Positions 1-59,059 of a DNA stretch of 64,000 bases are shown here, piece after piece (position 1 is the first letter of the stretch; the number at the start of each line of letters is the position of its first letter). The notes under the pieces were generated by a model, which worked only from the letters and a program-made list of their open reading frames with translations, had not been told where the DNA came from and searched no databases. A program made the position numbers and the translations under genes. Origin of the DNA: a virus. The DNA is taken from IMG/VR virus record IMGVR_UViG_2786546475_000019, positions 974-64,973 of that record, one strand, 5' to 3'.

Positions 1-100
1 AAGGACCATGGACCAAGGACAAAATGATAAATCTGGAACTGGACCCCGGACCCGGACAGGCCGACCAAGGACCGTGGACCGTGGACCATGTTGACAGCAC
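1..100. repeat. Tandem GGACC heptad arrays (ggaccat ggaccaa; ggacccc ggacccg; ggaccgt ggaccgt ggaccat)
   Basis: Direct reading shows GGACCNN repeated in three short arrays at 3-20, 41-57 and 69-90. Confidence 0.7.
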
Positions 101-219
101 CTAACATGTTCGCCATCTTTGGTCGGCCTGTCCGCCCCAGCAAAAAGCCGGTTGATGTTTTGCCGCCCCAGGTGAAGGCCGGTTGTTGGGAGGTCGATCC
201 AGGTTATCATGTGGGTGTT

Positions 220-257
220 CAATTTTGCAACACCGACAAAAAAGTGTTGCAAAATTG
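220..257. repeat. Perfect 14-bp inverted repeat (caattttgcaacac / gtgttgcaaaattg) with a 10-nt spacer
   Basis: Seen directly in the sequence. Confidence 0.8.
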
Positions 258-360
258 AACACCCCCCTGAAAGTGGGGTGTGCGGTATCGCACACCCCCT
301 GAAAGTGGGGTGTGCGATACCGCACGTGCGGAACCGCACAGTGAGCGGTATCGCTCAGCT
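258..360. repeat. Two tandem ~33-bp units (acacccc-ctgaaagt-ggggtgt-gcggtatcgc), each forming a hairpin, followed by two short palindromes (gtgcggaaccgcac, gagcggtatcgctc)
   Basis: Direct repeat with internal stems. GCGGTATCGC occurs three times, once inverted. Confidence 0.7.
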
Positions 361-387
361 CAACTGCCCTATATTAGATACTTCGGT

Positions 388-404
388 GTAGTCAATTTGA
401 CTAC
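388..404. repeat. 17-bp palindrome gtagtcaatttgactac
   Basis: Seen directly. Confidence 0.7.
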
Positions 405-739
405 ATGATAGATCGGCGATTTTGCCTAAATCCAAGGCATCGCTGCCCACGGTATAGGCACAAGGATATTAGACGGTAAAAACCGACATATTGTGAGCTT
501 TCCAGATCGCTTTCCCGAAAACTAAGTGTCCAGTAACTATTTCAAAGTATTTTCACGCGGGGAAAACCGATGAATGGGAGCCGCAGACAGCGTGCCTAAA
601 ATTCAGGCAGGTATAATTGGGGCGTTCCAAGCGAACACGGGCAAGCCAAGCCAAATTCGGCACGCTTGTCAAGTTCCACGGGACTCGCTACACTGTATGC
701 TGTAGCGTTTGATCTTTGACAATTTGGTTTCTAGTTGGC

Positions 740-792
740 GGTTAAACTCGCTACGCGGTCCAAATATCGCGGACCACGTAGCGAGTTTAACC
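740..792 (+). promoter_or_regulatory. Long hairpin with a 16-bp outer stem (ggttaaactcgctacg / cgtagcgagtttaacc) and an inner GGTCC/GGACC stem, in the 5' region of ORF 856
   Basis: Perfect 16-bp inverted repeat seen directly. Confidence 0.6.
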
Positions 793-793
793 G

Positions 794-826
794 GGCTTGA
801 ACGGTGACAGGTTCAAGCCTATTTCA
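794..826 (+). terminator. GC-rich stem-loop (ggcttgaac-ggtgacag-gttcaagcc) followed by tatttcatt. This is a terminator-like or attenuator-like structure 30 bp upstream of ORF 856
   Basis: 9-bp perfect stem with a T-rich tail. Confidence 0.45.
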
Positions 827-855
827 TTAAATCCTTATTTGGAAGGAATACCACT

Positions 856-2217
856 ATGTCACAAGAATCTAAACTTACCTCTGTTTTGTCGCTGCATTTC
901 GATTTTGACGCGAAGTCTTTACTTTGCGGCATGAATCCCGGTTCAGATCGATACTTGACGCCAAACCCGGTTCAATCGCTAGTAGATAGCTTATTTGCTG
1001 GTTGGAATAGCCAGGAAAGCTTGAAAGCCATCACTAATGGCAATCTCGCTAAAATCGATCCGCGATTCACTAAAGCGGACGACGTAGCTAGTTTCGCTGC
1101 TAAACAGCGTCAAACTTTCCGTTCTGAATTCAGACCGGGGACAGACTTGTGGGCAGCTCTTTGCGGCAAGTCTGACAAGTTCATCGCCATTGGACCAGCA
1201 CCTGCAAAGGGGCAGCCTGATGAACGTTTAAAGATTCCCGTTGAATCGATCTACGCGGTCCTTAATCTTTGGTGCGGTACCAAAGCGAATGGCATGACCG
1301 TATCGGGCAACAGGCGTATGCTTGCGCTACTGTTTGTTCTGGCCCTTGAATATGCGGAAGCATTCGCGGAAGCATTAGGGGCAGGGAAAACGAACGAAGA
1401 CGCGGAAGCTGTTGCTAAAAAGACAGTGAAAGCTCATCGGATTCCCGTAGTATTCAAATCGTGGGACACGTTCCAAGATTTGACTAGCGAGCAAATTGCG
1501 GACAATGAACGGGTTCACCAGTCCAACTATACGGAATTGGATCAGGTACGTTTGGCCGTTAAGATCAAACGCGAAGACTGGGGACTGTCCAAGCGGGATA
1601 TCGCTCGACAGATTCCGGGTTTGCGGACCGTAGCCAAAAAGACTGGCGAACTACGCATTAACCAGCGTAGGGCGTCCAATGCAACGGATCGTGCCGATCT
1701 TGTCATCTATGCCGATGACGGGCTGGATATGAACGTCATGGACCGGTTGACCACGGACAACGTAGAAAGCTACGTTGAAGGTGGACCGATTCCAGTGAAA
1801 CGGATCGCTTTCGAACACGTTCCCTTCCTCATCGACGCTACCAAAGAGTACAGCAGTACCCACGCTGCTATTCTTAAAGCGGTTTACCCTGATGCTGTTT
1901 TCAGTGAAGGGGAGGCTATTGGCATCGATGCCGATTCTAAAGCTTTGGAACGCTATTTTCGGTATATTATCGAACATAGCGGTTCAGCGAAACAAGCTTT
2001 GACGATCAAGCAATTACGCGATGCGATCACAAAAATTCCGTCGTCCAAAGACGTGGAAGTATCGCTACGCAAGCTGTACGAAGTGATTGCCGCTGGCGAT
2101 CCAAACGCACTAGCGTTACCAGCTTTGAAAGCTTCAGCGTGGGCCACAATTGTGGATCGCGAAGCGGAAGCGGAAGCGGAAGCGGAAGCGGAAGCGGAAG
2201 CGGAATCCGCCAACTAG
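856..2217 (+). CDS. Hypothetical protein, 453 aa, C-terminal (EA)7 repeat
   Basis: Long ORF with an RBS (aaggaatacc) 8 nt upstream. No recognisable motifs. It is isolated between repeat-rich non-coding regions. Confidence 0.55.
   Translation: MSQESKLTSVLSLHFDFDAKSLLCGMNPGSDRYLTPNPVQSLVDSLFAGWNSQESLKAITNGNLAKIDPRFTKADDVASFAAKQRQTFRSEFRPGTDLWAALCGKSDKFIAIGPAPAKGQPDERLKIPVESIYAVLNLWCGTKANGMTVSGNRRMLALLFVLALEYAEAFAEALGAGKTNEDAEAVAKKTVKAHRIPVVFKSWDTFQDLTSEQIADNERVHQSNYTELDQVRLAVKIKREDWGLSKRDIARQIPGLRTVAKKTGELRINQRRASNATDRADLVIYADDGLDMNVMDRLTTDNVESYVEGGPIPVKRIAFEHVPFLIDATKEYSSTHAAILKAVYPDAVFSEGEAIGIDADSKALERYFRYIIEHSGSAKQALTIKQLRDAITKIPSSKDVEVSLRKLYEVIAAGDPNALALPALKASAWATIVDREAEAEAEAEAEAEAESAN
2150..2198 (+). 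repeat. (GAAGCG)x7 hexanucleotide tandem repeat encoding (EA)n at the C-terminus of ORF 856..2217
   Basis: Seen directly. Confidence 0.9.
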
Positions 2218-2267
2218 AAACCCTTAGCCGCGGACCGGTCCAATTTGGACCGGTCTATTTTTATGCC

Positions 2268-2334
2268 CTTGGAATATCAACTAGCTGCACGCAATATCAA
2301 ATAGCTGCACGCAATATCAACTAGCTGCACGCAA
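2268..2334. repeat. About 3.3 tandem copies of a 20-bp unit, (c/a)tagctgcacgcaatatcaa, i.e. iteron-like
   Basis: Direct reading. Copies start at 2281, 2301 and 2321, with a partial copy before. Confidence 0.8.
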
Positions 2335-2436
2335 ACCCGGTAGGGGTTTATCACAAGTCGTTGCACCCAGGAACAATACCGGGGTCCGTCGCCCTTAACG
2401 CGACGACACAAGCATGATATTTTGTGCCACGGTCCC

Positions 2437-2521
2437 CGGACCTAGCTACTCGGACCTAGCTACTCGGACCATGCACCCTGATCCACGGACCATGATCCAC
2501 GGACCACGGACCAAGCTACTT
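2437..2521. repeat. GGACC-rich repeat block: ggacctagctactc x2 and tccacggacc(a) x3
   Basis: Direct reading. Confidence 0.75.
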
Positions 2522-2565
2522 AGGCCAAAACACAATGATACTGGGGTAGGGGTTCAGAATCCGCC

Positions 2566-2577
2566 GGTCCGTGGACC
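2566..2577. promoter_or_regulatory. GGTCCGTGGACC 12-mer, identical to 50177-50188. Candidate protein-binding site
   Basis: Exact 12-mer recurrence. Related ggaccgtggacc occurs twice at 69-86. Confidence 0.5.
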
Positions 2578-2687
2578 AAAGAACTTCATTAACGTTTCCT
2601 CTGAAAATTATTTTCTGAATTTTTTCAGAATTAGGGGCAATCCGTCCTGCCCTCATTCGTATCTATAGGGAAGTCCACCTACTGATA

Positions 2688-3257
2688 ATGATAATGACAA
2701 GAAAACTTTATCCAGCATTACCTGATCACCCTGAGTACCGTTGCAAGTCCACGGCTCAAAACAAACATTGTACGTTTCTATCATGTGACGGACTTCGCAA
2801 ACTGAATCTGTACGACGATCCAAGGCAATCTGATAAATGTCCCAAGCACGCCGGACGACCACCAAGTAAACAAACAGCTTTGGCAAAGTACATGGACACC
2901 CATCCTCATGAGGTGGGTTATCATTTGCCGGACCAAGCACCAAAGGTGCATTCCCAATCCCGAAGTGTCGCCGAAGAACTTCACATTCTCCGCACACTTC
3001 TTCAAAACACCCTGAACCAATGCAATACGTCGCTCGACTTACTCGCTAACACTGAGCGAATGACAGTCTTAAGTGATAAGATTGCTAACTTGATAAAAAC
3101 TGACGTATTCCTCGAAGAAAAAACAAAGAACTCCTTGACGCGGGACCAAATCATGGCCGTGCTCTCGGAGATACAACAAGTGATAACTCGGCATTGTTCG
3201 CCGGAGCAGGTCGCACTGATCCGTCAAGACTTCCAAGAACTAACCATTCCTGACTAA
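2688..3257 (+). CDS. Hypothetical Cys/His-rich protein, possibly zinc-binding. First gene of the long + strand operon
   Basis: ORF of 189 aa. N-terminal CxxxxxxxxCxxxxC...CPKH pattern. Confidence 0.4.
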   Translation: MIMTRKLYPALPDHPEYRCKSTAQNKHCTFLSCDGLRKLNLYDDPRQSDKCPKHAGRPPSKQTALAKYMDTHPHEVGYHLPDQAPKVHSQSRSVAEELHILRTLLQNTLNQCNTSLDLLANTERMTVLSDKIANLIKTDVFLEEKTKNSLTRDQIMAVLSEIQQVITRHCSPEQVALIRQDFQELTIPD

Positions 3258-3268
3258 CCTCAGTTACT

Positions 3269-3574
3269 ATGCCAAGTCACATAAATCCAAATCGCATCAA
3301 ATCAGAGACGATGTTCGCCGGAGCACAGAACATCAACATTATCACTACGGAATCCAGCGTCACGCTCCGTGCTCCAGATGATACAACTCAATCGCTCACG
3401 CCAACCGGAACCCATCCAAATAAAGTAATCTCAGCAACCCTCGATCAAGCAGGTTTCTACACCGTAGACGGTCACATTGGAAAAGTCCTTGTGCTTGTTT
3501 CCACTTATGATGAAACCTACGGAGCTGCTTACAGAGGAACGGGACTCACCCCAGTAGTAGGCCAAGACGCCTAA
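3269..3574 (+). CDS. Hypothetical protein
   Basis: ORF of 101 aa in the operon context. Confidence 0.35.
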   Translation: MPSHINPNRIKSETMFAGAQNINIITTESSVTLRAPDDTTQSLTPTGTHPNKVISATLDQAGFYTVDGHIGKVLVLVSTYDETYGAAYRGTGLTPVVGQDA

Positions 3575-3585
3575 CCAAACAAACC

Positions 3586-5217
3586 ATGTCATACGCAGAC
3601 GAAACAACAGCAAAAGCAGCCGTAGCAAATGCCATTGGCAACGCAACAAGCGTCGATCCAGTGAGCAATACGGAACATGCTGACGTTCTTGATAATTTGA
3701 TCGAGAACATCTTCGCCGCTGATGGTATCACTGTGTATTTCGCCGAACCTCTGTCGGGACTTGGCGATGACGGCGACGTCACAATCTACGAAAACAAAAT
3801 CTACTCGAAAGCTGCCGGAACATGGTCCGAGGAACTTGAATTAACAAGCTGGACTTTCAATACTGCTGATCCTCCCACGTCCACGTCTCACACTTATGCA
3901 ATCTCGACAACCGGCCAATTATACGTAAACGTCGCCGGAACATGGACCTTGCAGCAGTTATCATTAGGCAAATACAAAGGTGCTCACTCAACCACCACAA
4001 AGTATTACGCCAATGATATTATCCTCTACTCAGGGGAATTGCAGTACGCTAACAGCACGCACAATCCTAAGACATATGACGCCGCAGACTGGACTTCGCT
4101 ACCTACTGCGTCATCAACCCACGTACTCCACGATGATATCTCAACACTTCCTTCCTCCCCGGACGGTTACACGCTTGAACTATATGACGGGATCGGCGAG
4201 GGGATGCTCTTTGAGCGGGTATCAAGTGCGTGGGTTTACCGAACACAGACAACAACTCCAGTTGTTGACCTAACCTCTGGCAACGCTTCAACGATTGCAG
4301 CATATTTGTCCGCTGGTCAAATATATCGGTACAATTTAACGACAGGCGAACCATACTACGTTGATAACGCCGGAGCACGGACCTCGCTTCCTCCAATCCA
4401 AACCGCCGTAACAGCCCTACCGTCAATTGTAGACGGTCCCGATCTATTGGTTTGGACCACGGACCCTGACGGGCATCGAGCGTACTTTAAAGGAGCTTCC
4501 GCGTACCAGAAGCTCCCACTTGTCCCAAGTATCCAAGAGTCCGATCAATCACTTTCGGAGAATCGGGAACTAGCGTACAACGCCCGAACACTATCATTCG
4601 ACGGTGACGGCACATTCCGCTTCGGAGACTTAAGCGACAACACCGACGGATATTATGCGGCCTTCAACTCCGGTGCGTTACAGTGGGCCAATGCTACACC
4701 GGAAACGAACCTCACGTCCATCACCCCTACCATTGTCAATTCGCAAAACCTAGCTCTGGTAAACGACGGCACTAGCAACAGTTTCACGTTGAAATACGCA
4801 GGAAGCCAAGATCAAGACTTTACGTTTCCAGCAGATCTTCCAGCTTTAGGTAATATTCTGGAAGTCACGGGCCTTGCAACAAGTTCCATTGTAGTAGGCT
4901 GGCGTAAGCCCGTAAAAGACTGGTTCACGCTAACCTCAGCCACCCCAACTGTGACAGTTGACGGCAATGATAGCAAACGCTTTAAACTTGACCCTGGGCA
5001 CACTCCAATTACAATTGCTTTCACTAATTGTGAGCAACATGATTTTGTTCTCCTCAAGATACGAGGTCACGCTACAAACTCAGTGTCAATGCCTGCCGGA
5101 GCAGACGGTGACGTTTTCTCTCTTAGTACGGATGATACAAAAGCAACTTTAGTCACAGCTATCATTGATGGTTCCGCCATCCATCTTGGCGTAATGAGGG
5201 ACGTATCATGGGCTTAG
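3586..5217 (+). CDS. Putative tail fibre or structural protein (543 aa, Thr/Ser/Asn-rich)
   Basis: Large ORF. The composition is typical of fibre proteins. It lies adjacent to a beta-helix protein. Confidence 0.4.
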   Translation: MSYADETTAKAAVANAIGNATSVDPVSNTEHADVLDNLIENIFAADGITVYFAEPLSGLGDDGDVTIYENKIYSKAAGTWSEELELTSWTFNTADPPTSTSHTYAISTTGQLYVNVAGTWTLQQLSLGKYKGAHSTTTKYYANDIILYSGELQYANSTHNPKTYDAADWTSLPTASSTHVLHDDISTLPSSPDGYTLELYDGIGEGMLFERVSSAWVYRTQTTTPVVDLTSGNASTIAAYLSAGQIYRYNLTTGEPYYVDNAGARTSLPPIQTAVTALPSIVDGPDLLVWTTDPDGHRAYFKGASAYQKLPLVPSIQESDQSLSENRELAYNARTLSFDGDGTFRFGDLSDNTDGYYAAFNSGALQWANATPETNLTSITPTIVNSQNLALVNDGTSNSFTLKYAGSQDQDFTFPADLPALGNILEVTGLATSSIVVGWRKPVKDWFTLTSATPTVTVDGNDSKRFKLDPGHTPITIAFTNCEQHDFVLLKIRGHATNSVSMPAGADGDVFSLSTDDTKATLVTAIIDGSAIHLGVMRDVSWA

Positions 5218-7058
5218 GATTAGGATTAAACATGGGCTTGTTTCCTTTACCATCGGTTAAAGCAACATTGGACAACCGTCCTTTGTTCACGTCGCTTGCA
5301 TTTTTGCAATGGCGTCGCGATATAGTAACTGCAAAAGAACGCCCCACGTATTGGATCCCTCAAACAGAGTATTACGTCAGTGAATCGACCGGTAACGACG
5401 CTAACGCTGGAACAGAAGTCGCCCCTTGGCAAACACTTGAAAAAGCTCAACAAGTTCTTGACGCTTTGTCTGATGAATCGTATACCGTTATACGGCTCAA
5501 ACGTGGTGATACTTGGGAAGAAGAAGGAACTGTTTTAGCGGTAGACGGAAACTCGTGCTTACTGCGACTGACAAAGACGTTCAGCGGGATCAGTTCTTAC
5601 GGGTCCGGTGACCTGCCGTTTATCAATCAATTTGCTACCAAATACACGTCGGGTTGGACTGTTCACAGTGGGAACGTCTACGTCCGATCGGAAGCCAATG
5701 ATATTGTTAGCGTTCGGCTAACAACTGATCGCCTTGTACCTTTTTACGACGCCACAGACGCTACAGATTGTGCTACCGATATTGCTGACACAAACGGCTC
5801 ATATTTTTATGATGCGACTGGCAACAACTTATATGTCAACCTTGGCGGTACTGATCCGAATACAGTAACGATTGAAGCTGCAATTTCTAATGATGACACA
5901 GTTGAAGCGGTAGCACATGGTTGTTTCATCGAGAACATTCGGCTCGACGGCACGTTAAAAAGAACAACAAGGGACGAGCAGGCGGGTATCCGTTTAAATA
6001 TCAATGGCAGTGAAGTCGCAAGAATCGAGAACTGTGAAGCGTATTATGGTTCGTCTCACCTGATACACCAGAACGGTTTAACCGGGACTGGCGGCATCGG
6101 TATTATCAAGAATTGCAAAGCTGGCTATTCGCTCTGGAATACTGGCGGAAACACGATTTTCAATTCATACACATTAGGCGGCGATCAAGAGACTTATGTC
6201 CAAGACTGCGAGGTTCCTTATGGAACATTACCAGGTCACGAGTGGACGTCGACTAACTCAGCACACGATGCTTTAGATGGTTCAGCGTTTTATTGTCATG
6301 CTGGTGGCGGGGCAAACACTGGGTTTATCCTCGTCGATGGGATGAAGTGCGACCATGATAACGCTTGGGGTCCGCAAGAAGGGTCTTACAATGGTAGTGC
6401 TCCAGCAGCAGCAACAATCGAAGACGCCAAGGTAGTTGTCTTCGGAGAGGTCGTAGATAACAGCCGACTTGGGTTGCGATGTTTCCGATTATCACCTGCG
6501 AACGGAGTTGGAATTTGCAACACGTACACAGGAGGCTACGGCACCGATAGAAATTACCGAGCACTTTCAGCAACAAACCAAAGCGGCTTTATGTTTAATT
6601 GTCGCTTCGACGTTTCTCTCCCTGCTGGACTATTTAACGCTCACGGATTCTGGAACGGTTCTGGAACGTCAAATGTAAGCTGGTTCTTTAACCGTTTTAT
6701 CCAACGAGCTTCTCACGGATCGCATGATCTTGCGTTTAATTATGACTCCGTTTCTACATGGCCTGACAGCACGCTTTACAACAACGTTATCGCTCGCGTT
6801 GGAACCTATGATAACTCGGTCGCTATGTATAACGGCACTCCCGATTCCAACAACAATGCTCTGTATCAATTCAAAGGGGCGAACGCAGGAGCAAACTCAA
6901 TTGACATTACAACCGAGGCCGAAGCGGTTCAAGACACAGCAAATGTTGATACTTACGGTACATGGGAAGCTGCAAATACAGCAATCGGAGTTGTGCCTGA
7001 GTACGACAGGCTTCTGAACCCGCGAACAGCAACAACAAGCATTGGAGATTTGGCGTAA
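5208..7058 (+). CDS. Putative right-handed beta-helix (pectate-lyase-fold) tailspike/depolymerase-like protein
   Basis: 616 aa. The N-terminal ESTGNDANAGT...PWQTLEKA region, many G-x-N/D/T repeats and low-complexity Asn/Gly-rich segments suggest beta-helix. Confidence 0.45.
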   Translation: MGLGLGLNMGLFPLPSVKATLDNRPLFTSLAFLQWRRDIVTAKERPTYWIPQTEYYVSESTGNDANAGTEVAPWQTLEKAQQVLDALSDESYTVIRLKRGDTWEEEGTVLAVDGNSCLLRLTKTFSGISSYGSGDLPFINQFATKYTSGWTVHSGNVYVRSEANDIVSVRLTTDRLVPFYDATDATDCATDIADTNGSYFYDATGNNLYVNLGGTDPNTVTIEAAISNDDTVEAVAHGCFIENIRLDGTLKRTTRDEQAGIRLNINGSEVARIENCEAYYGSSHLIHQNGLTGTGGIGIIKNCKAGYSLWNTGGNTIFNSYTLGGDQETYVQDCEVPYGTLPGHEWTSTNSAHDALDGSAFYCHAGGGANTGFILVDGMKCDHDNAWGPQEGSYNGSAPAAATIEDAKVVVFGEVVDNSRLGLRCFRLSPANGVGICNTYTGGYGTDRNYRALSATNQSGFMFNCRFDVSLPAGLFNAHGFWNGSGTSNVSWFFNRFIQRASHGSHDLAFNYDSVSTWPDSTLYNNVIARVGTYDNSVAMYNGTPDSNNNALYQFKGANAGANSIDITTEAEAVQDTANVDTYGTWEAANTAIGVVPEYDRLLNPRTATTSIGDLA

Positions 7059-7309
7059 TGCTACTAAACATAACTGATAAACACGGTGTCACTGTGGGTG
7101 TTGTTGAAGCAGACACCTTGGAGAAAGCTTCCAAGCTCGCAAGAGATCACGTCACCAAGTTGGTAGATCCTCCTGCTCCTGACGGCACTCCAGGCATGAA
7201 GTACCCTAAGACTGAAAGCTCTGATTTGTTCATCGCATTCTTCCGAGAAGAAACTGATAAGCGACCAATATTGAAATTCAAATTCAAGCCACTTGATGTG
7301 ATCAAGTAG
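7058..7309 (+). CDS. Hypothetical protein
   Basis: ORF of 83 aa, start coupled to the upstream stop. Confidence 0.35.
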   Translation: MLLNITDKHGVTVGVVEADTLEKASKLARDHVTKLVDPPAPDGTPGMKYPKTESSDLFIAFFREETDKRPILKFKFKPLDVIK

Positions 7310-7320
7310 TTAATAGACCA

Positions 7321-8034
7321 ATGAAAGAAATTTTAGATTCACTATCACTAATCGGGCTGTTTGTGCTATCCATCGTAACGATCATGCATTTCGTACAGCT
7401 TGACAATCGAGGCGAGTGGATGCGACAAGTGCAAGAAAATTTTGACTACGGACAGCGATGCAGCTTGCACGATTTGAAGCAAACCATCAAAGCAAACAAT
7501 TTAATAGAGCCTGATTTTGCACCGCGTCCTCCAGTCCCTGAACCGTTTTGGCGAGAAACTACAACGTCTGCAAAATCAGACACCTGCCCACATTGTAATG
7601 TACCAATGAGATTTTTTGATTGTGTTGGAACCGTTCGGGCGTGGCGTATTATCATCGCACATTCTCTGATCAGTGCGATGTATCTGGGTATTGCGTTTTT
7701 CCGTTTTCTTCCGGCTGGAATGGAAGCACGAACGCAAACGGAACGAGTTGTTTGGTATTCGCTCGCGTTTATCTTCCCGTTTTGCTGGGCTGCGGGATAC
7801 GGGACGACGATACTCGCCGGCTGGTTTCCTGCTTTGGCGTACTTTTTGAAAGAATCAGCGTGCTACGTTGACGCTGCATTTTGTGTTACTTTTCTATGGT
7901 CGACGCGAAATCAAAATTTGGTTTCGGTTACTGTTGATAGTTTTCGAGACGAAATTGAAGACATTGTCAACAACGAAGACTCTGACTTATCTCACGGCGA
8001 CCGCATTCAGCAGATTCGAGACTCTTTGCAATGA
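7321..8034 (+). CDS. Multi-pass membrane protein with a CPHC...C zinc-ribbon-like loop
   Basis: 4-5 hydrophobic helices visible (LSLIGLFVLSIVTIM, IIIAHSLISAMYLGIAFF, VVWYSLAFIFPFCWAAGYGTTILAGWF, etc.). Confidence 0.5.
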   Translation: MKEILDSLSLIGLFVLSIVTIMHFVQLDNRGEWMRQVQENFDYGQRCSLHDLKQTIKANNLIEPDFAPRPPVPEPFWRETTTSAKSDTCPHCNVPMRFFDCVGTVRAWRIIIAHSLISAMYLGIAFFRFLPAGMEARTQTERVVWYSLAFIFPFCWAAGYGTTILAGWFPALAYFLKESACYVDAAFCVTFLWSTRNQNLVSVTVDSFRDEIEDIVNNEDSDLSHGDRIQQIRDSLQ

Positions 8035-8408
8035 ATATCTGGCTCTTGATGCAAGAATCGACAGCCCCTGGAATGCCTGCATGGGTGGGGTTCGTCACTG
8101 GTACGGGAGGTGGTCTAGTGATGGCAATTTTCGGACTGATTGCGTTGTGGAAGCGAATGATCTTCAAGGAAACACAGTACGAAAAACGGCTCGAAACGAA
8201 AGACAAAGAAGTCAATCAAATCGGGCGAGAGTTCGTTGAACTATCGATAAAGATGTTGGAACGGGACGAAAAAAACCGGGAAAACGATAAGGCAATCCGC
8301 GATGGTTTCGACAGACTAATTGAGCACGTTAAAACCGACTCACTTAAAATGGAGAATTGGCGGAAAGAGGTGGATCGAATATTGGCACAGCTGGTACCCC
8401 GTAAGTAA
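8031..8408 (+). CDS. N-terminally membrane-anchored coiled-coil protein (i-spanin-like architecture)
   Basis: TM segment WVGFVTGTGGGLVMAIFGLIALW, then a charged heptad-like region. Confidence 0.4.
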   Translation: MNIWLLMQESTAPGMPAWVGFVTGTGGGLVMAIFGLIALWKRMIFKETQYEKRLETKDKEVNQIGREFVELSIKMLERDEKNRENDKAIRDGFDRLIEHVKTDSLKMENWRKEVDRILAQLVPRK

Positions 8409-8430
8409 AACGCAAAACAAAAGAGAACAA

Positions 8431-12961: not shown

Positions 12962-13218
12962 ATCCAGTAGCTCACACCCTTCGATTGATATCAGTGACAG
13001 CAACAGCCGAAACTCTTAAGAGCCAAAACGATTTGTTCCACGGAGCTTCGGAAATTCGAGTGACCCCTGCTGCTGATATTACAATGAAGGATTTGCAGAC
13101 GGGAGCTTCTGTTACATTAACTTCCGGCCAAACACATTCCCTACCTGCCGCTAACGTTGCGACAGAATTTCAATTCACCACAAGTGGAGCCGAAGTGTTC
13201 CAAGTTTACTCCGCATGA
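12952..13218 (+). CDS. Hypothetical protein immediately upstream of the terminase. Not an obvious small terminase subunit
   Basis: 88 aa, start/stop coupled (atga) with the next gene. Confidence 0.3.
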   Translation: MSMNPVAHTLRLISVTATAETLKSQNDLFHGASEIRVTPAADITMKDLQTGASVTLTSGQTHSLPAANVATEFQFTTSGAEVFQVYSA

Positions 13219-14894
13219 TAACTGAACTGTTTGACCATTTAGCCGAAAGCTTAACCCACAGCACAATCACAAATTGTGCTCAGTGGGCGTTAGAGCGTAG
13301 GGTTATGGGACGACCGTTCGAGGGCCCATGGAATTTTAAATTATTTCCGTGGTTATACACTCCGCACGTTTCCAACCATCCATTTCGGTTGGCATTGAAA
13401 GGTGCTCAATTAGGGTTTACAGAGTGGGCAATTAACGAAGCTTTTTACGCTATTGATCATAAGCGTTCAAATGTTTTATATTGTCTGCCTACAAAGGGCA
13501 ACGCGGGTGACTTTTCAACCACCCGCTTCAACCCTGCCCTAGCCCTTAGCCCCTATATCGCGAACTTGTTCTCTGGTGCAGATAATGTATCATTGAAGAC
13601 GGCAGGTTCTCGGTCACTGTATATTAGGGGTTCAAAGGCTAGAGCAGACTTGAAGTCTTTGCCAATTACTGTTTTGATACTTGACGAAATTGATGAAATG
13701 CCTAAAGAGTCAATCTCTCTAGCTCATCATCGTCTTGATGGACAAGCCGTAGGTTCAACTTCATTGCTTGAATTATCAACTCCTACTCTACCTGATATGG
13801 GGATTGACGCTGAGTACAAATTATCAAACCAGATGATTTACGTATTCCAGTGCCCAGGATGTAGCAAGTATATTGACTTGCAATACCCTAGGAATTTTAA
13901 GCTAACTGCTACGCGAATGAACGATCCTGACATTGAAAAGAGTTATTTCTTTTGTCACGAGTGTGATTACGTAATAGACCACGAAGCCAAACCAGAGATT
14001 TTTAAATGCAAGGAAATGGGCGGCACGGGTCACTACAGACCGCAAGTAAAATATGCTGACCGAGAAGGGTACTATGTAAATCAAATGTACTCCTCGGCCA
14101 AAGGCGGAACGCCAATTGAGTGGGCTAAAGCCGTAATACTTGCAGAAACAAATCCGTCAAAAGAACAAGAGCTTTGGAACTCTAAAGTTGGTAAAGGCCA
14201 TGCAACAGAGAACGCAAAGCTAGAAGAAGGAGTCTTAGAGCAGCATAAGCGAAACTACACTATTGCCGACTACGAACTCCATGATAATCGTATTAGAACA
14301 ATTGGGTGTGATGTTGGAGCAGTTTGCGATTTAGTGTGCTTAGAGTGGACGTGGGAGTCTGATCTTGGCCTGCCTAATGATAGATACCGTCCTCGACTGG
14401 TAGGTGAATTATCATTGCCCCGATCTTCGGAAGATGCCCGAGCCATTTTGGACTACTTCCGAAAGATGAACGCTCATATGTTTGTTATGGATTCCGAACC
14501 TGAAAGTCGTTTTGCTCGACAAGTCATCAATTTGCTAGGCGACTATGGGTTCATGTGTGATTATGGGAAAGGATACAAAGCAGGACAAGTTAATGTTAAA
14601 GAAGAAGATGGCTTTATCACTGTAAATCGAACTACATGGTTGGATATAACTATGTCTCGATTCACAGCTGCTAACAAAGACGGAACAGATTTACCTAGCG
14701 ACATAAGCGAACGATTCCTTCAACATATGACAGCCCCTGCTAGATATTACAAAGATGATGCAAATGGCGACCCCATAGCTATTTACAAAAATGAAAAAGC
14801 GGATCACTTGTTTCATGCGTGGACCTACGCTGAGATAGGATTGCCTCTTTACTTCCTAACAGCCGAAGGCGAAGATATCGATGTTATCTTTTAG
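13215..14894 (+). CDS. Terminase large subunit (GpA-like family)
   Basis: ALKGAQLGFTEW Walker-A-like, VLILDEIDEMP Walker B, CPGC...CHEC zinc motif. It sits before the portal gene. Confidence 0.6.
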   Translation: MITELFDHLAESLTHSTITNCAQWALERRVMGRPFEGPWNFKLFPWLYTPHVSNHPFRLALKGAQLGFTEWAINEAFYAIDHKRSNVLYCLPTKGNAGDFSTTRFNPALALSPYIANLFSGADNVSLKTAGSRSLYIRGSKARADLKSLPITVLILDEIDEMPKESISLAHHRLDGQAVGSTSLLELSTPTLPDMGIDAEYKLSNQMIYVFQCPGCSKYIDLQYPRNFKLTATRMNDPDIEKSYFFCHECDYVIDHEAKPEIFKCKEMGGTGHYRPQVKYADREGYYVNQMYSSAKGGTPIEWAKAVILAETNPSKEQELWNSKVGKGHATENAKLEEGVLEQHKRNYTIADYELHDNRIRTIGCDVGAVCDLVCLEWTWESDLGLPNDRYRPRLVGELSLPRSSEDARAILDYFRKMNAHMFVMDSEPESRFARQVINLLGDYGFMCDYGKGYKAGQVNVKEEDGFITVNRTTWLDITMSRFTAANKDGTDLPSDISERFLQHMTAPARYYKDDANGDPIAIYKNEKADHLFHAWTYAEIGLPLYFLTAEGEDIDVIF

Positions 14895-17757: not shown

Positions 17758-19122
17758 ATGGCTTCGCCTAACGATGCGTTGATTCCTGAGCTATGGGCCC
17801 AGGAAGCTATTAACTTGATGTGGGAAAATTTCCTTTTCGGGCAATTGTTCCACACCGAATTCAAAAACCAAATTGCTGTTGCTGGCGACGTGGTTAACAC
17901 CTCTCGACCTGTTCGGATGCGTGCTCACCGTAAGAACAGCGACATTCAAACTATCAATGACCAAACCGCACGTTCAACTAATATCAAAGTTGAACTGAAC
18001 CAGCAAATTTACGTTTCGTTCTTGCTGGGTTCACGGGACCGGTCTTTGAGTTTTGTTGACTTGACAAGCAAGTATCTTGTCGAAGCGATGCAAGCTCAAA
18101 TCCGAATGATCGATCGCTCGATTGCTGGACACATTGCATTGTTCTTGGCCAACGCAGTTGGTACTTCAGGAACTATCAGTGCGTCTAACGCTTACAACCA
18201 ACTCACGTTGGCTCGTAAGAAACTGAACGATTACAATGTTCCTGAGCCAAACCGTCGGTTTGTCTTTGGCAATCGTTCGGATATCGCGTTCTTGCAAGAT
18301 GATCGCTTTATCAATAGCGATTACAACGGCATGGGCGGTACAGCGGTTCGCGAAGCGTATCTTGGTCGAACTCTCGGCTTTGATATGTTCCGTTCGCCAA
18401 ACTTGCCTATGGCTGAGAACTGCCCTCAACAGTCGCCAACGACTGTTGACGGAGCGGCAGCAGCAGGAGCTACGACTATTGACGTAGCAACTGGTACAGC
18501 CCCAGCTGTGAACTCGTACATCGAGATCGCAGGGGAAGGTTCTCCAAACTTGGTCACGGGAGTTTCAACTGATACTCTCACCTTGAAGCGTCCTCTGCGT
18601 AACGCCGTTGCTGACGGTGCCGCAGTCAAGATTTTCTCTCAAGGTGCTGTGAATAACGCAGCAGGCCACGATGCTGGTGATAACTTTGACGCCAAGGCAA
18701 ACGGTTACGCTGCTAACTGGGCCGAGGACATTGCTGTTGACGGTAACGTCCCAGCAGTTGGTCAAATTATCTCGTTTGCTTCGCATGACGCCGAGTACGT
18801 TGTTGTGAATCTCGAAGGTAGCAACATTCTTTTGGATCGCCCATTGGAAGCTGCAATCGATGACAATGACACTGTTGCTTTGGCTGGTGACTTCGAATTG
18901 AACTTCGCGTTTAACCCGAAAGCTATCGGTATCATTTCCCGTCCATTGGCTGTGGAGATGGAAGGAACTGGCGTCCGTTCAGCAATCGCCGAAGGTTATG
19001 GCTTTGGTGTTCGCGTGGATATCGGTTTTGACGGGACCAAGCAAGCACAACGTGTGACCATCAGCTCGTTGCTCGGTCTCAAGCAGTTGGATGAAGAACG
19101 CGGAGTACCTCTCCTTGCGTAA
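17758..19122 (+). CDS. Major capsid protein (with a probable insertion domain)
   Basis: 454 aa, strong RBS (ggagatgaagt ATG), position after the scaffold, Ala/Gly-rich insertion. Confidence 0.55.
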   Translation: MASPNDALIPELWAQEAINLMWENFLFGQLFHTEFKNQIAVAGDVVNTSRPVRMRAHRKNSDIQTINDQTARSTNIKVELNQQIYVSFLLGSRDRSLSFVDLTSKYLVEAMQAQIRMIDRSIAGHIALFLANAVGTSGTISASNAYNQLTLARKKLNDYNVPEPNRRFVFGNRSDIAFLQDDRFINSDYNGMGGTAVREAYLGRTLGFDMFRSPNLPMAENCPQQSPTTVDGAAAAGATTIDVATGTAPAVNSYIEIAGEGSPNLVTGVSTDTLTLKRPLRNAVADGAAVKIFSQGAVNNAAGHDAGDNFDAKANGYAANWAEDIAVDGNVPAVGQIISFASHDAEYVVVNLEGSNILLDRPLEAAIDDNDTVALAGDFELNFAFNPKAIGIISRPLAVEMEGTGVRSAIAEGYGFGVRVDIGFDGTKQAQRVTISSLLGLKQLDEERGVPLLA

Positions 19123-38425: not shown

Positions 38426-38805
38426 AAGTCAACCAAATGTTCAGGAACAGGTTGTAGCTCTCCGTTACGTTCAATCAAAACGCTTCCAGGGCAAACTGTG
38501 TAAACTCTATCACCATAGTCAAGTATAGCATGTTCACTAACGGAACAGTGACAAACCGGACAGAGCCACTCGCCATCAATGTTAGGGTGACGAAAATGTC
38601 TCAACGAGCTGTCGTCCTTCAACGTGTTAAAATGTTTCACGAACCCGCCAAGCTTGATCTCTGCTACGGCTTTCGGGTAATTGAGTTCGAGTAGCTCATC
38701 TTGTGTCAGTGTCACGACCTGACCACGTTTAAATGGTCCACGGTCCGCGAAGCGACCATTGAAATAATGAGCACCTGCCGCTGATAGTTTTACTTTGAAA
38801 TTCAT
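38416..38805 (-). CDS. Hypothetical protein (CPVCHC...C cluster)
   Basis: ORF of 129 aa. Confidence 0.35.
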   Translation of the reverse strand: MNFKVKLSAAGAHYFNGRFADRGPFKRGQVVTLTQDELLELNYPKAVAEIKLGGFVKHFNTLKDDSSLRHFRHPNIDGEWLCPVCHCSVSEHAILDYGDRVYTVCPGSVLIERNGELQPVPEHLVDLWT

Positions 38806-39149
38806 TTCAAAACCTCGTTACACCACTCTTCCAAATCATTCACCCAACGTCCAGCTAAGTTGAACACAAACCATAAATGATACCACTTATGGTCTTTACC
38901 TAACTGCGTTTCGAAAGCTTCCTTCCACCACTCACTTGGTATCTGAAAATTACCCCATCGAGGCGTTTCGTCTCTTGCCCAGCGTTCAAGAACTGTTTGC
39001 ACGGTCCGTGCTACTTGCTTCAAGGAGTCTTCTTCGAATCCTTTCACACTTGCGACAAGTAAATCACGAAGTGATAATCCGTTGTCTTTTGCAAGCTCCT
39101 GAATCTTTTTGCGAGCTACTTCAGACATTTCAATTTTTAATGTTGGCAT
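38802..39149 (-). CDS. Hypothetical protein
   Basis: ORF of 115 aa. Confidence 0.35.
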   Translation of the reverse strand: MPTLKIEMSEVARKKIQELAKDNGLSLRDLLVASVKGFEEDSLKQVARTVQTVLERWARDETPRWGNFQIPSEWWKEAFETQLGKDHKWYHLWFVFNLAGRWVNDLEEWCNEVLK

Positions 39150-43911: not shown

Positions 43912-44387
43912 TCCGGCTCAGTAGTTCCAACGTATCCCATACCTTTGCCAAGAATCTTGTCTTGATAATAATACCATCGGTATGAGAAGATACAGTCTTC
44001 GAAATCTCCGGCCAAGCCTTTATAATATCCAGGCATAGCCAAGTTTGGAGGAGTAAGAGGGCCACGTCGTATGTAACACGGAGATTGATAAAGATACCCA
44101 ACCCGGTTCCATACTTCATGTAAAGCTAACCCTCTCTTATCCCGCTCCTTCAACAACGCTATCATATGCTTCAAAGTCCATTGATAATTTGAATCAGTGG
44201 AACGAACCCATTGAGTTGACGGGTGATTTGCGAAGCATGGTTTACACATTCCTTGACGCCAAAGTCCAACTTCGTCATGTGCCGTTGATAACATTTGGGC
44301 ACACTCAATCGGCATTTTTGTTAAATGGTCCGTGGCCATGTAGCTAGCTGCAAGGACCGGGTCCATATCAAGGAAGAAAACATTCAC
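43881..44387 (-). CDS. Conserved phage protein of unknown function (N-terminal FFLDMDPVLAASYMATDHLTKMPIECAQMLSTAH)
   Basis: ORF of 168 aa. The N-terminal motif looks familiar from phage/viral proteins but I cannot assign a family. Confidence 0.35.
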   Translation of the reverse strand: MNVFFLDMDPVLAASYMATDHLTKMPIECAQMLSTAHDEVGLWRQGMCKPCFANHPSTQWVRSTDSNYQWTLKHMIALLKERDKRGLALHEVWNRVGYLYQSPCYIRRGPLTPPNLAMPGYYKGLAGDFEDCIFSYRWYYYQDKILGKGMGYVGTTEPEWLLHLKGKL

Positions 44388-44770
44388 GCCCCAAGTCCAA
44401 GCGATTTGATGGAAGCCCTTTTGAGTGCTGTCAAGGTAACAACACGTCCAAGTAGCTTGGAAAGTGTTTCTTCGAAGTTATCAAGTTGCTCCGATAATTT
44501 GTATTCGAAGCCGTTCAAAAGTATCACTTCTTCCAAGTTCTCAGAAACCCAAGAATTTAAGTCTTGGTCTTTCACAAGATACTTACCGTCTTGAATCGTT
44601 AACTTGCCATTGATAGTTGGGCCTTTCAATTCGTCTCGCCAAATTTTCACGTTTTCAGGAGCGGTTATGTTAATTGAAGCAGCTCCTGATCCTGCATCAA
44701 AGATTGTTACCCGAACGTCGTTCCCAATTGTAAATGATTGCGACGCCCAGCGTTTAAGAGTTAACGCCAT
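44384..44770 (-). CDS. Hypothetical protein
   Basis: ORF of 128 aa. Confidence 0.35.
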   Translation of the reverse strand: MALTLKRWASQSFTIGNDVRVTIFDAGSGAASINITAPENVKIWRDELKGPTINGKLTIQDGKYLVKDQDLNSWVSENLEEVILLNGFEYKLSEQLDNFEETLSKLLGRVVTLTALKRASIKSLGLGA

Positions 44771-49586: not shown

Positions 49587-50147
49587 TTAGGTAGACTCAA
49601 ACGTTACGATATCCGGGTCTTGTAGCCCTCCGCCTAAGTCGGAAGCTTTCAACTCAAATTCGTAATTAACTCCACGGAACCCCGTGAAGTTATCACCGAC
49701 CCAGCCGTCGAAAGTGAACTCAACCCGCACCGTGACAGTAGGAGCGGGAATAGCTACTTCCTCAATGAATACGTCGGTCCAGCCTTGACCGCCAGAACCT
49801 CCATTAAGCGGGTTAGTGTTGTTTCCCCAATTCATAGGAAATTTTATAGTTTCCGTCACGCTCACGGGACCATTTGGGCCTTCTACCACGACAGTGTGGT
49901 CAACCATTTGATAAGTTCTCACGTGAACTGCAAGCCACTCCAAACGATTGTCAACCCACCAAGTTGCAGTTAAGTTAACTTTTGTAACGTCCCCGGCTGA
50001 GACTTCCGTGACTCCCATTGAGGCGGAGCTGTAGTAGTCTCCGGAAGTGCCGTGCACCGGGTTGTTGCCGCCTCCGCCTACTTGACCGTAAGCAGTTGTT
50101 GCTACGAGCAACAGAATAGTAAACAACACAAGTGATAAAATACGCAT
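49587..50147 (-). CDS. Secreted protein (signal peptide MRILSLVLFTILLLVATTAYGQ)
   Basis: ORF of 186 aa. Confidence 0.45.
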   Translation of the reverse strand: MRILSLVLFTILLLVATTAYGQVGGGGNNPVHGTSGDYYSSASMGVTEVSAGDVTKVNLTATWWVDNRLEWLAVHVRTYQMVDHTVVVEGPNGPVSVTETIKFPMNWGNNTNPLNGGSGGQGWTDVFIEEVAIPAPTVTVRVEFTFDGWVGDNFTGFRGVNYEFELKASDLGGGLQDPDIVTFEST

Positions 50148-50176: not shown

Positions 50177-50188
50177 GGTCCGTGGACC
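50177..50188. promoter_or_regulatory. GGTCCGTGGACC 12-mer (second exact copy), intergenic
   Basis: Exact match to 2566-2577. Confidence 0.5.
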
Positions 50189-50189: not shown

Positions 50190-51014
50190 TCATTTAGTAG
50201 GACGACACAATGCTCGTGTCTTCCAGTAGTTGAAGCTACGTTCCAACTCTTTGACGAACGCTTCCGCATCCATCTGAGTATCAGTGCCGCCGTCGCTGCC
50301 GAAGTGGTTGTGCAGCAACGTTTCAGGTTTCATCGGAGCATTCAGGTCTTCTAAGTCCACCCCAGCGTTGACTGAGATGATATTCCACCGCCCGTAGGCT
50401 TGTTCTCCGCTCTCATAGAGCACGTCTCGATGATAAAGGACGACTTCGACGTGGCAGGCGGCGGCCTTATTTACGCCGTCCAAGTATTCATGCCGACGTG
50501 GCGACTCGCCGTCACGTCGTGGCTTATACTCCACGATCAAAGTATCATTGTTCCGAAGCTTACGAATAGGGCAATAAACCCCGTTCGCGTCAATCGGAAC
50601 GATGATAACTCCGTCTCTATAGCCGGGACGCTGCTCGTGAAATCGGGCTTGTACCTGTTCAACGAGCACTTCGTCTGAGAACTTCCAGTGGGAGAACTCA
50701 CTATTGGCTGTCTGCCGACTAACGAAGTCGTGGACCGCTACGTCTGGAGCTGGGTTGCTCCAGTTCTGTTGCGTAACCTGCAACACGGTGGGTTCTCCAT
50801 TAGGGTGGATCGCCGCTTTGTCCCTTGGCTCGTAGTCATAAATGAAGGTATCTCCGTCCGAGGATTGAAGGGCATTACGCCCCGATCCATCTTCTTCTGC
50901 GTCGCCGTAGGGGACGTAGCCGTTTTTAAGAAGTATGATAAATTCGTCGTTACTTAACATTTGTTGGTTGTCAGTTTTCATCTCGCTCTCCTGTTTATTT
51001 AACAAGCTTTCCAT
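50190..51014 (-). CDS. Hypothetical protein
   Basis: ORF of 274 aa. Confidence 0.4.
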   Translation of the reverse strand: MESLLNKQESEMKTDNQQMLSNDEFIILLKNGYVPYGDAEEDGSGRNALQSSDGDTFIYDYEPRDKAAIHPNGEPTVLQVTQQNWSNPAPDVAVHDFVSRQTANSEFSHWKFSDEVLVEQVQARFHEQRPGYRDGVIIVPIDANGVYCPIRKLRNNDTLIVEYKPRRDGESPRRHEYLDGVNKAAACHVEVVLYHRDVLYESGEQAYGRWNIISVNAGVDLEDLNAPMKPETLLHNHFGSDGGTDTQMDAEAFVKELERSFNYWKTRALCRPTK

Positions 51015-58586: not shown

Positions 58587-59017
58587 TAACAAACCTCATT
58601 AACAAATTGATATCATTTTCGATAACAGATTCGAGAAAGCCCGAAACAACCAGACTTCACCCTATAGCTACGAGTGGCGGGATATCGGATTGCCCCACAA
58701 AATGAAAATAAATCGAGTTAATGGAAATTGATACGAAACTTTAATGACGTTTCCAGTGCAGCGTTATCATTATTCTCTCACGTACGCGAAGCCATTAACG
58801 TTTTTGATACTCAAACCTTTAATTTAAGCTTCTACTTCTTATGGGTACGAGGTGAAAGTAAAATATAGTAGTAGTGTAAATATTATAAGGATTTCAGCCG
58901 CTCAGGCGAGCTTCTGATAAGAAAACGTTAATGAGCCAAATTTTACGTTAAATTGGTATGTTTCGACGGGAATTGATACCGTCTCACTGCTCTCCTCCCG
59001 AACCTTGCATCTTGGCT

Positions 59018-59059
59018 CACGCTACACGTATCACGCTACACGTATCACGCTACACGTAC
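59018..59059. repeat. cacgctacacgtat x3 tandem 14-bp repeats (iteron-like), followed by the ACGT-rich palindrome tacgcgta
   Basis: Seen directly. Confidence 0.85.

Follow-up and report, generated by a model that had tools for sequence, protein, structure and literature searches.

Phased GGWCC heptad arrays flanking an orphan gene in a marine phage genome as candidate sites for a DNA-binding protein

The parS/operator sites of plasmid pSM19035 are built from contiguous 7-bp repeats that occur in both orientations, with at least four contiguous units being needed for function (PMC9499535). Here we describe 7-bp repeats with a GGWCC core in a 64,000-nucleotide (nt) stretch of viral DNA, positions 974 to 64,973 of IMG/VR record IMGVR_UViG_2786546475_000019, hereafter called the window. 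It covers most of a phage-like genome of about 72 kb, the source of which is a Tara Oceans metagenome assembly (ERZ2782922 scaffold_85, 72,259 bp). The heptads form two arrays, one on each side of an orphan gene for a protein of 453 amino acids (aa), and an original prediction made from the letters of the window had taken GGWCC for either a restriction/modification target or a regulator half-site.

We tentatively infer, with rather less than even confidence, that a sequence-specific, phage-encoded DNA-binding protein, probably a dimer, recognizes the GGWCC heptads as iterated sites. Each GGWCC core is a 5-bp pseudo-palindrome that would take one dimer, and the 7-bp spacing of the units would let adjacent dimers touch, allowing arrays of at least 21 units and of 15 units to nucleate a filament of protein and DNA cooperatively on either side of the 453-aa gene, at the junction of the replication module and a long rightward operon. 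Dispersed 12-mers would then be minimal two-unit sites. The most likely binder would be the product of the 453-aa gene itself, which carries a weak ParB-like signature, and the locus may work as a centromere/operator pair does, the binder's gene having sites both upstream of it and directly downstream. If a protein does bind, the arrays provide a compact, testable handle on an orphan gene module in a phage lineage that has no cultured relative and almost no recognizable early or accessory proteins, and heptad-type cooperative sites, so far described from a Gram-positive plasmid, would extend to marine phages.

Among documented mechanisms the heptad parS/operator of pSM19035 appears to be the closest. 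The likeness lies in gapless 7-bp units of mixed orientation, several arrays per replicon and a minimal functional site of two to four units, and runs of more than four contiguous gapless units are found here as well (15 in array 2, 11 and about 7 in array 1). The core is WATCACW there and GGWCC here, and the replicon is a plasmid there and a phage here. Omega, a ribbon-helix-helix protein, acts there with a ParA partner, whereas neither was found in the searches of this phage given below, so that membership of the pSM19035 type is not supported. The plasmid arrays also overlap the promoters that they regulate; here there is no overlap with the promoter-like element nearby.

Type Ia partition loci, such as parB-parS of P1 and sopB-sopC of F, provide a second comparison, the parS of P1 using heptamer box A units. 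This locus resembles them in having a repeat-built site immediately downstream of a ParB-like gene and further sites upstream. It differs in that the ParB-like nature of the gene is weakly indicated and no ParA gene is adjacent, and in having contiguous heptads rather than 16-bp palindromes or box A/box B units around an IHF site. The units here are tandem 7-bp repeats and not a palindrome of about 16 bp, only the 12-mer described below and the 13-nt GCACGGWCCGTGC being palindrome-like.

Repeats of similar size are also found in phages. The HTVC023P/DSL-LC04-like phages have the same core in the same 7-bp tandem form, in non-coding DNA at the head of the late or packaging module; their lineage and terminase family are unrelated to this phage, and their arrays have 3-5 units beside terS, in contrast to 15-21 units at 10.6 kb from the terminase here. 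Phage T7 reiterates 7-base CCTAAAG units (about 175-340) in non-coding DNA beside its terminal repeat, with an irregular spacing of about 12-13 bp and a known physical end, whereas the units here are contiguous. The stoperators of cluster A mycobacteriophages are short sites in genes and intergenic DNA with a preferred sense orientation. Dispersed sites occur here too and are mostly sense (10 to 3); however, both orientations exceed a codon null, the sites number 13-16, tandem arrays are the main feature and no repressor was identified.

Anatomy and abundance of the GGWCC heptads

Array 1 is cut by the start of the window, and its run begins 54 nt further upstream in the source contig (L001), where ten further heptads (L001 904-977) keep the register. 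The main run consists of 11 heptads at L001 904-980, with an extra in-register GGACC at L001 876, and reads AGACCAT GGACCGT GGACCAT GGACCAT GGACCGT GGACCGT GGTCCAT GGACCAA GGACCAT GGACCAA GGACAAA. Ten GGWCC starts between L001 876 and 967 share one register (position mod 7 = 1), and after a 31-nt spacer the five GGACC starts of the second part share another (mod 7 = 4, in L001 coordinates). The in-register units number 11 plus about 7, with the whole array put at no fewer than 21. A direct repeat, ACAAAATGATAAATCT, brackets the run, and the array lies about 770-910 nt before the start of the 453-aa gene.

Array 2 begins 207 nt after the stop codon of the same gene. Its GGWCC units start at 2431 (GGTCC), 2438, 2452, 2466, 2487, 2501 and 2508, all at intervals that are multiples of 7, and alternate with degenerate units (GCTACTC, GCACCCT, GATCCAC) through which the register is kept. 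The strict 7-bp register of these seven starts, together with that of the 10 and 5 in array 1, speaks for the proposed protein-binding sites. Downstream of array 2 follow in order the 12-mer at 2566, a CATTAACGTTT box, an A+T-rich palindrome, a promoter-like 37-mer and the 189-aa gene; the array ends 105 nt upstream of the 37-mer and does not overlap it. Both arrays were recovered in independent assemblies (ENA, Logan, JGI, NCBI). The array region separates the replication module from the long rightward operon, and the phage has only one other sizeable non-coding region.

The coordinates of these and other features are collected in Table 1. The original prediction had placed GGACC heptad arrays near 1-100 and 2437-2521, and they are present, as are all the other elements that it listed, with coordinates off by at most one base. 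They include GGACCGTGGACC at 69 and 76, the exact 12-mer at its two intergenic positions and GGTCC within the inner stem of the hairpin ahead of the 453-aa gene. The conserved palindromic element that it also mentioned could not be assigned to a particular sequence; GGACC heptads are enclosed by the inverted repeat at 53-71/116-134. The two intergenic settings of the 12-mer are the gap at 2218-2687 and a 42-nt gap between the open reading frames (ORFs) 49587-50147 and 50190-51014.

Table 1. Coordinates of the heptad arrays, associated elements and reference genes in the window
Feature	Position	Strand	Remark
3' end of array 1 main run (AAGGACC ATGGACC AAGGACAAA)	1-23	+	GGACC at 3, 10
Array 1, second part, shifted register	41-89	+	GGACC at 41, 48, 69, 76, 83; GGACCGT three times at 69-89
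Inverted repeat	53-71/116-134		19-nt arms, 95% complementary; encloses the GGACCGT triplet
Hairpin upstream of 453-aa gene	739-761/771-793		23-bp arms; GGTCC at 757, GGACC at 771, at inner stem end
453-aa orphan gene	856-2217	+	arrays on both sides; weak ParB-like signal
Terminator-like hairpin of 453-aa gene (GGACCGGTCC / GGACCGGTC, then T-run)	2232-2265	+	hairpin 2232-2256
Array 2, 15 contiguous heptads	2424-2528	+	one register
12-mer GGTCCGTGGACC, two opposed cores	2566-2577		57 nt upstream of promoter-like element
Promoter-like 37-mer GGGGCAATCC-N11-ATTCGTATCTATAGGG	2634-2670	+	before 189-aa gene; array 2 about 105-210 nt upstream
189-aa orphan gene	2688-3257	+	syntenic with 197-aa homologue in L097, repeat array upstream there too
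Four two-unit sites, loose cluster within 543-aa gene	3817-4465	+	at 3817, 3937, 4372, 4454
Large terminase TerL, lambda gpA-type (GpA_ATPase, phrog_675)	13215-14894		10.6 kb downstream of array 2
P22-type coat protein	17758-19122		
Dispersed exact two-unit site GGTCCACGGTCC	38735-38746		coding
13-nt palindrome GCACGGACCGTGC then AAACAGTTC, copy 1	38990-39011	-	inside gene
CsrA-family protein	44384-44770		
Second exact 12-mer GGTCCGTGGACC	50177-50188		about 30 nt upstream of 186-aa minus-strand gene start
Primase-helicase (DUF5906; phrog 'DNA primase')	55980-58592	-	
13-nt palindrome GCACGGACCGTGC then AAAGAGTTC, copy 2	56237-56258	+	antisense in primase-helicase gene

The enrichment of GGWCC stands above chance when set against Markov backgrounds, with 154 occurrences in the 64-kb window compared to 81 expected at order 1 or 105 at order 3. 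Longer words show the same tendency. CACGGACC and its complement occur 17 times in the whole window against 1.2-1.9 expected, and 13 times against 1.7 outside 1-2600. The 9-mer CCACGGACC/GGTCCGTGG had been reported as at least six copies; it is indeed enriched, while its count is 9 (0.2-0.4 expected) and some of the positions first given are off by one, CCACGGACC lying at 2483, 2497, 2504, 4457 and 55650 and GGTCCGTGG at 2566, 36580, 44327 and 50177. Two-unit sites, counted as GGWCCRYGGWCC with at most one mismatch, number 27 against 0.92 expected, and the 16 that lie outside the arrays represent an excess there of about 17-fold. Pairs of cores in direct orientation (GGACCNNGGACC) number seven and those in one opposed orientation (GGTCCNNGGACC) three, the other opposed arrangement (GGACCNNGGTCC) not occurring.

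A codon-preserving null, in which synonymous codons were shuffled across all genes while protein sequences and codon usage were kept, leaves an excess on both strands. GGACC was found 85 times in sense against 50 expected (z 5.8) and 41 times in antisense against 28, which is 1.7-fold and 1.5-fold, respectively, and GGWCC overall is 1.6-fold enriched. For CACGGACC the figures are 9 against 1.0 in sense (9-fold) and 3 against 0.6 in antisense. As the excess of GGACC under this null is about 1.5- to 1.7-fold on either strand, the raw 2:1 preference for sense is mostly due to codons, and the similar enrichment of both strands argues for a strand-symmetric signal at the level of DNA, that is for a dyad-symmetric site rather than a coding or RNA signal.

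This bears on an RNA-level explanation, in which the transcribed arrays would bind or titrate the CsrA homologue of the phage through ANGGA motifs (CAUGGAC, CACGGAC, CAAGGAC). The phage does encode a CsrA-family protein, nearly all array cores read GGACC on the strand of the flanking genes, and the CACGGACC copies dispersed in genes are 10 sense to 3 antisense. We nevertheless find this explanation hardly credible: the antisense orientation is enriched too, and array 2 has a terminator on one side and a promoter-like element on the other, with no promoter or terminator of a small RNA evident. The predicted fold of array 1 puts most GGA motifs in stems (z -4.6) and array 2 has no special fold, while related heptad arrays in other phages lack GGA.

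GGWCC is a known type II target, and the AvaII/SinI-type restriction-modification or methylation site that the original prediction had seen in it is favored by the tolerated A/T changes at the core center and by the strand symmetry of the enrichment. It is very improbable all the same, as the site is enriched in a genome that strongly avoids GCGC (1 against 120 expected), CTCTTC (5 against 39), GACATC (3 against 27), ATTAAT (2 against 20) and CCWGG (CCTGG, 16 against 47). The only methyltransferase detected is a D12-class N6-adenine enzyme, no cytosine methyltransferase being found, and strict tandem arrays in a 7-bp register would be left unexplained. Nor are GGWCC sites clearly more conserved between strains than other 5-mers, and the sister strain lacks the 12-mer at 2566, as detailed below. 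The other proposal, a regulator half-site, fits the anatomy in its strict 7-bp phasing, its minimal copies of two units and its position, which is kept in a relative while the sequence is replaced. The depleted sites themselves look like avoidance of host restriction sites and could help to identify the host. The lone GCGC lies at 1324, the 120 expected being for coding sequence, and a distant relative (contig L097) has 0 against 13.8; CTGAAG is also depleted (12 against 40), and CTCTTC was counted together with GAAGAG.

Strain variation and heptad arrays of other genomes

A sister strain of this phage matches it at 99-100% identity in the structural and replication genes and at about 90% over window positions 3-5084, and does not align over 5084-8413. 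The value of about 90% places the arrays in a fast-evolving part of the genome. Between 5084 and 8413 the genes are replaced (616, 83, 237 and 125 aa in one strain, 415, 241, 98 and 114 aa in the other; L098, L108), which represents a hypervariable cassette that starts at the repeat region and possibly carries host-range genes.

The arrays occupy the same two positions in both strains despite the divergence of about 10% in their flanks. In the sister strain array 1 is shorter by two units (14 nt) and homogenized to GGACCAT (all units in L002), and array 2 has 16 units, one more (+7 nt), such that array lengths differ between strains in multiples of 7 only. Three A/T flips at the core center retain GGWCC, including GGTCC to GGACC at 2431 and GGACC to GGTCC at 2487. 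The register and position of the arrays are therefore maintained between strains, while individual sites, the 12-mer included, are not demonstrably constrained. The neighboring inverted repeats vary in a similar manner. In the sister strain the arms of the repeat at 53-134 themselves contain GGACC/GGTCC, and its right arm also has GGTCCGCGGTCC, giving a longer palindrome of opposed heptads. The hairpin at 739-793 is present with substitutions, and the terminator-like hairpin of the 453-aa gene, which is formed by GGACC/GGTCC in the window, is a different one there, made once more of GGACCATG/CATGGTCC.

More distant relatives retain the slot and not the unit. A 4.4-kb contig (L097), with proteins 28-36% identical to those of this phage, carries in order a 454-aa gene, two small genes, a non-coding stretch, the 197-aa homologue and a 543-aa homologue, and its non-coding stretch has a repeat array of five CCAAGAGCC units. 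GGWCC is not enriched there (8 against 7.2 expected), and two other distant relatives found through ParB (L334, L335), which share the layout of the replication module, have no GGWCC excess either. The absence of enrichment in all three shows that it is not a composition effect of the whole family, and an array slot that is kept while its unit is lineage-specific is the expected look of sites that co-evolve with a nearby specificity protein.

Heptads with this core are found well beyond the family. Stretches of at least three GGACCRY units occur in 90 IMG/VR loci, none of which is related to this phage, and 53 of them carry one terminase family (TerS phrog_51, TerL phrog_38) whose TerS members fall to a pairwise identity of 27%. 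Three control heptads of equal base composition were searched alongside: GGCACRY gave 21 loci and GCGACRY 15, with one locus each carrying that terminase family, and GAGCCRY gave 61 loci, 13 of the 60 tested carrying it. Once the family is removed, GGACC heptads are about as frequent as the controls. Its closest cultured phages are DSL-LC04 and the Pelagibacter phages HTVC027P and HTVC023P. Of the 27 loci that include a complete terS, 23 have the array 170-800 bp ahead of it, usually on the same strand, and the cultured members have heptads of other cores near terS (GGCCCGT and TGGGCCG in DSL-LC04, AAGCTTG in HTVC027P). Heptad tandem repeats are thus common, and there is at least one further phage family in which those with a GGACC core are tied to the beginning of the packaging module.

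Within this HTVC023P/HTVC027P/DSL-LC04-related family the core varies by lineage (GGACC, GGCCC, GAGCC, AAGCTT), and the arrays upstream of terS are often preceded by a G-rich stretch and followed by CTATAG and a T-rich tract. They lie at 3333-3671 in DSL-LC04 (L095) and 813-1156 in HTVC027P (L096), the IMG/VR loci being L006-L094. We know of no description of heptad arrays upstream of terS in HTVC023P/DSL-LC04-like phages. Nothing relevant to these sequences or to phage heptamer repeats was found in the literature, one match for GGACCGTGGACC being a CRISPR protospacer in a Vibrio prophage.

These arrays raise the question of whether the repeats form a packaging recognition site (pac- or cosB-like), bound by the small terminase and marking a genome end in the large non-coding region. 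The association of GGACCRY with one TerS/TerL family well above its controls, the other-core heptads at the same place in cultured members and the position of the arrays all lend weight to this, as there is no repeat-bearing non-coding region beside the terminase gene of this phage. We regard it as a serious explanation that is nonetheless unlikely to be correct here. TerL lies 10.6 kb from array 2 and belongs to another family than that of the IMG/VR loci, leaving the site neither beside nor inside the terminase genes, although such adjacency is not an absolute requirement for pac or cos in all phages. The 189-aa protein encoded beside array 2 bears no relation to the TerS of those loci (hhalign probability 1%). 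Nor is there any sign of an end at the arrays: independent contigs of 71-72 kb break at a 30-bp coding repeat or near 35.5 kb, and a second scaffold (L002, L098, L108, L113) links the right end of the window to the left, which together make the map circular or permuted. A signal of this type would also need no dispersed two-unit sites.

A wider possibility, to which we attach about the same low confidence, is that unrelated marine phage lineages use such repeats convergently. Tandem 7-bp units with a short palindromic core might then be a general, so far undescribed type of recognition site, loading an orphan, very divergent ParB-like protein here, as a new form of parS made of contiguous GGWCC heptads, and marking the start of the packaging module in HTVC023P-like phages. 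The terS-linked heptads of that abundant pelagiphage-related family suggest a packaging or late-control signal, one that could be used to predict genome ends in metagenomes.

The 453-aa gene and the case for a proposed DNA-binding protein

The 453-aa protein has no Pfam (even at E = 1), PHROG or PDB match, and a word-indexed search returned its own strain variant only. An exhaustive HMMER profile search of 1.8 billion representative proteins found one distant homologue, 28% identical over the full length, and a metagenome scan with the resulting two-member alignment gave no matches. Comparison by hhalign with a 21-sequence ParB profile (P 0.0011, probability 21%) placed residues 196-253, in the expected register, on IPxxV, ENxQR and the start of the helix-turn-helix (HTH), and an SxxRR motif that is conserved in both members of the family lies 40 residues upstream of this match. 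BLASTP against the two ParB proteins of the phage was not significant. We prefer to treat "ParB-like" as a lead, not a result.

Several results weigh against the tentative reading of the heptads as sites for a phage-encoded protein with the 453-aa product as binder. The ParB-like signal is weak, both by the hhalign probability given above and by structure models, which reach a predicted local distance difference test score of 35-37 in two AlphaFold runs. A Pfam scan of the 56 small ORFs of at most 150 aa at E <= 0.05 recognized no known DNA-binding family, neither ribbon-helix-helix (RHH, Arc, MetJ, ParG, omega) nor helix-turn-helix, although divergent proteins could escape it, and no ParA/CbiA-type ATPase was found among the 25 most-matched of 42 Pfam families in 96 proteins. 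The 12-mer at 2566 has become GGGCCGTGAACC in 7/7 sister-strain contigs, with both cores lost, so that the stress laid on the exact 12-mer by the original prediction is not borne out; six strain contigs share the copy at 50177 unchanged, and since its flanks are unchanged as well its conservation is uninformative. In the region of about 90% identity 28/35 GGWCC sites are unchanged and 30/35 are still GGWCC (80-86%), which is not significantly above the 73% of all 5-mers. Viral contigs often carry heptad repeats with other cores (15-61 loci for the three controls, against 90 for GGACC), and more than 120 bacterial genome stretches, spread over many phyla and all lacking the terminase of the IMG/VR loci, have four GGACCRY units in a row. 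Finally, tandem repeats change in whole units by replication slippage whether they have a function or not.

Some of these observations also favor an explanation without function. The arrays would be slippage-prone, microsatellite-like repeats and the GGWCC excess a compositional or mutational bias, in keeping with copy numbers and unit sequences that vary between close strains, units that are homogenized within a strain, the loss of the 12-mer at 2566, the unexceptional conservation of GGWCC and the abundance of heptads of several cores in viruses and of GGACCRY repeats in bacteria. Were this so, the finding would be an ordinary one. We consider it improbable, since neutral slippage explains the changes in copy number and not the two positions kept despite the divergence of their flanks, the array in the same intergenic slot of L097, a register undisturbed by degenerate units or the surplus of two-unit sites beyond the arrays. 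The 9-fold excess of the 8-mer CACGGACC over the codon null and the lack of GGWCC enrichment in three relatives also stand against it.

Searches with the 189-aa protein matched only itself, megablast of window 1-6000 and tblastn of the 543-aa protein and DNA polymerase A found no match among 50,697 phage records, and no relatives of the 453-aa or 543-aa proteins were present in IMG/VR. The ORF at 3586-5217 had been considered as the large terminase on the grounds of size and position and was rejected, TerL being the gene at 13215-14894.

Replication region and other features of the genome

Another way to account for the arrays is as replication-origin iterons bound by the primase-helicase, the two clusters cooperating at a distance. 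In satellite phage P4, ori and crr cooperate in this way. The phage encodes a DUF5906 primase-helicase, and an A+T-rich stretch (L001 240-420, about 500 nt upstream of array 1) and three CCGCCCCAAGTTRGAACAGGTGATTTGTC iterons lie just upstream of array 1. This seems quite improbable to us, with the primase-helicase gene about 13 kb away and contiguous 7-bp units being unlike typical iterons of 17-22 bp. The divergent-promoter region at 58593-59359, between the primase and ParB genes, is repeat-rich and a more conventional place for an origin, so that an origin at the arrays is less likely than one there. It contains a perfect 14-bp repeat in three copies (TCACGCTACACGTA, 59017-59058), itself two heptads, as well as CGCGTGCTCC-type repeats, A+T-rich palindromes (TTTTCAAAATA) and CATTAACGTTT boxes as at 2589, and by its sequence is a candidate replication origin or control region.

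The start of the source contig (L001 1-700) consists in part of a 30-bp coding tandem repeat, CGCCCCAAGCGGAAGCAGGTGATGCCGAGC, in which the contig ends; it has no fewer than 4 copies here compared with 2.5 in the sister strain, and it is the point at which two independent 72-kb assemblies break. The three non-coding CCGCCCCAAGTTRGAACAGGTGATTTGTC units lie about 400 nt downstream and resemble the coding unit, and two further units, CCGCCCCAG, are found at window 132-193. A 20-bp direct repeat, AATATCAAMTAGCTGCACGC, of three copies (four in the sister strain) with TATCA in each unit follows the terminator of the 453-aa gene at 2273-2334, ahead of array 2.

The promoter-like 37-mer, GGGGCAATCC-N11-AYTCGTAKCTATAGGG, has three copies of identical spacing in the window, at 2634-2670 (+), 59278-59314 (+) and 58660-58696 (-), which precede the 189-aa operon, the ParB-helicase-polymerase operon and the primase operon, respectively. 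Its AAT-N16-CGTA spacing resembles promoters of extracytoplasmic function (ECF)-type sigma factors, and a phage protein with sigma-70 region 2 and region 4 may be linked to it. TCTATAGGGAAG, which is part of this element, was also tried as a repeated 12-mer of T7-like promoter type and rejected, with 31 matches against 43 expected.

Other recognizable genes encode a tape-measure protein, ParB-domain proteins, a helicase, DNA polymerase A, the sigma-70-family protein, a thymidylate-synthase-family enzyme and the D12 adenine methyltransferase. There are three to four ParB-domain proteins, and no ParA or integrase was recognized among the Pfam families listed; Rfam and tRNA scans gave no matches. 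A set of minus-strand genes at 33.5-55.4 kb, comprising the thymidylate-synthase-family enzyme (E 2.6e-97), a dNMP kinase, MazG, DUF1937/nucleoside deoxyribosyltransferase-like proteins and the D12 enzyme, suggests nucleotide or DNA modification.

The element formed by GCACGGACCGTGC and AAA[C/G]AGTTC occurs in two copies that are 21/22 identical, one sense and one antisense, with the 8-mer inside, and from its sequence could be a palindromic operator or a parS-like site. An apparent enrichment of CCGTAGCC was rejected as a DNA signal. The excess of this 8-mer is accounted for by (GCCGTA)n at 51474-51616, which encodes a Gly-Tyr/Gly-Asp repeat protein and varies in length between strains. So does a second coding tandem repeat, (GAAGCG)7.5 at 2161-2205, which gives the 453-aa protein an EAEAEA tail that is absent from its 439-aa variant.

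By a wide margin, the most over-represented short word in the window is TGATA/TATCA, with 496 occurrences against 151 (order-2 Markov) and 444 against 152 in codon shuffles (z 26). It lies on both strands and in all possible frames, has no extended consensus and is not enriched in L097, L334 or L335. In the 5-kb region of about 90% identity 28/28 TGATA sites are unchanged in the sister strain against a background of 73% (about 1e-4 by chance). The TGATA signal is stronger and better conserved than that of GGWCC, and the TGATA excess and the near-absence of GCGC are both stronger signals than the GGWCC finding itself. As speculation, TGATA might protect the DNA in the manner of Chi, or be a target for modification or for a primase. 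Units of ATGATA bracket both GGACC arrays.

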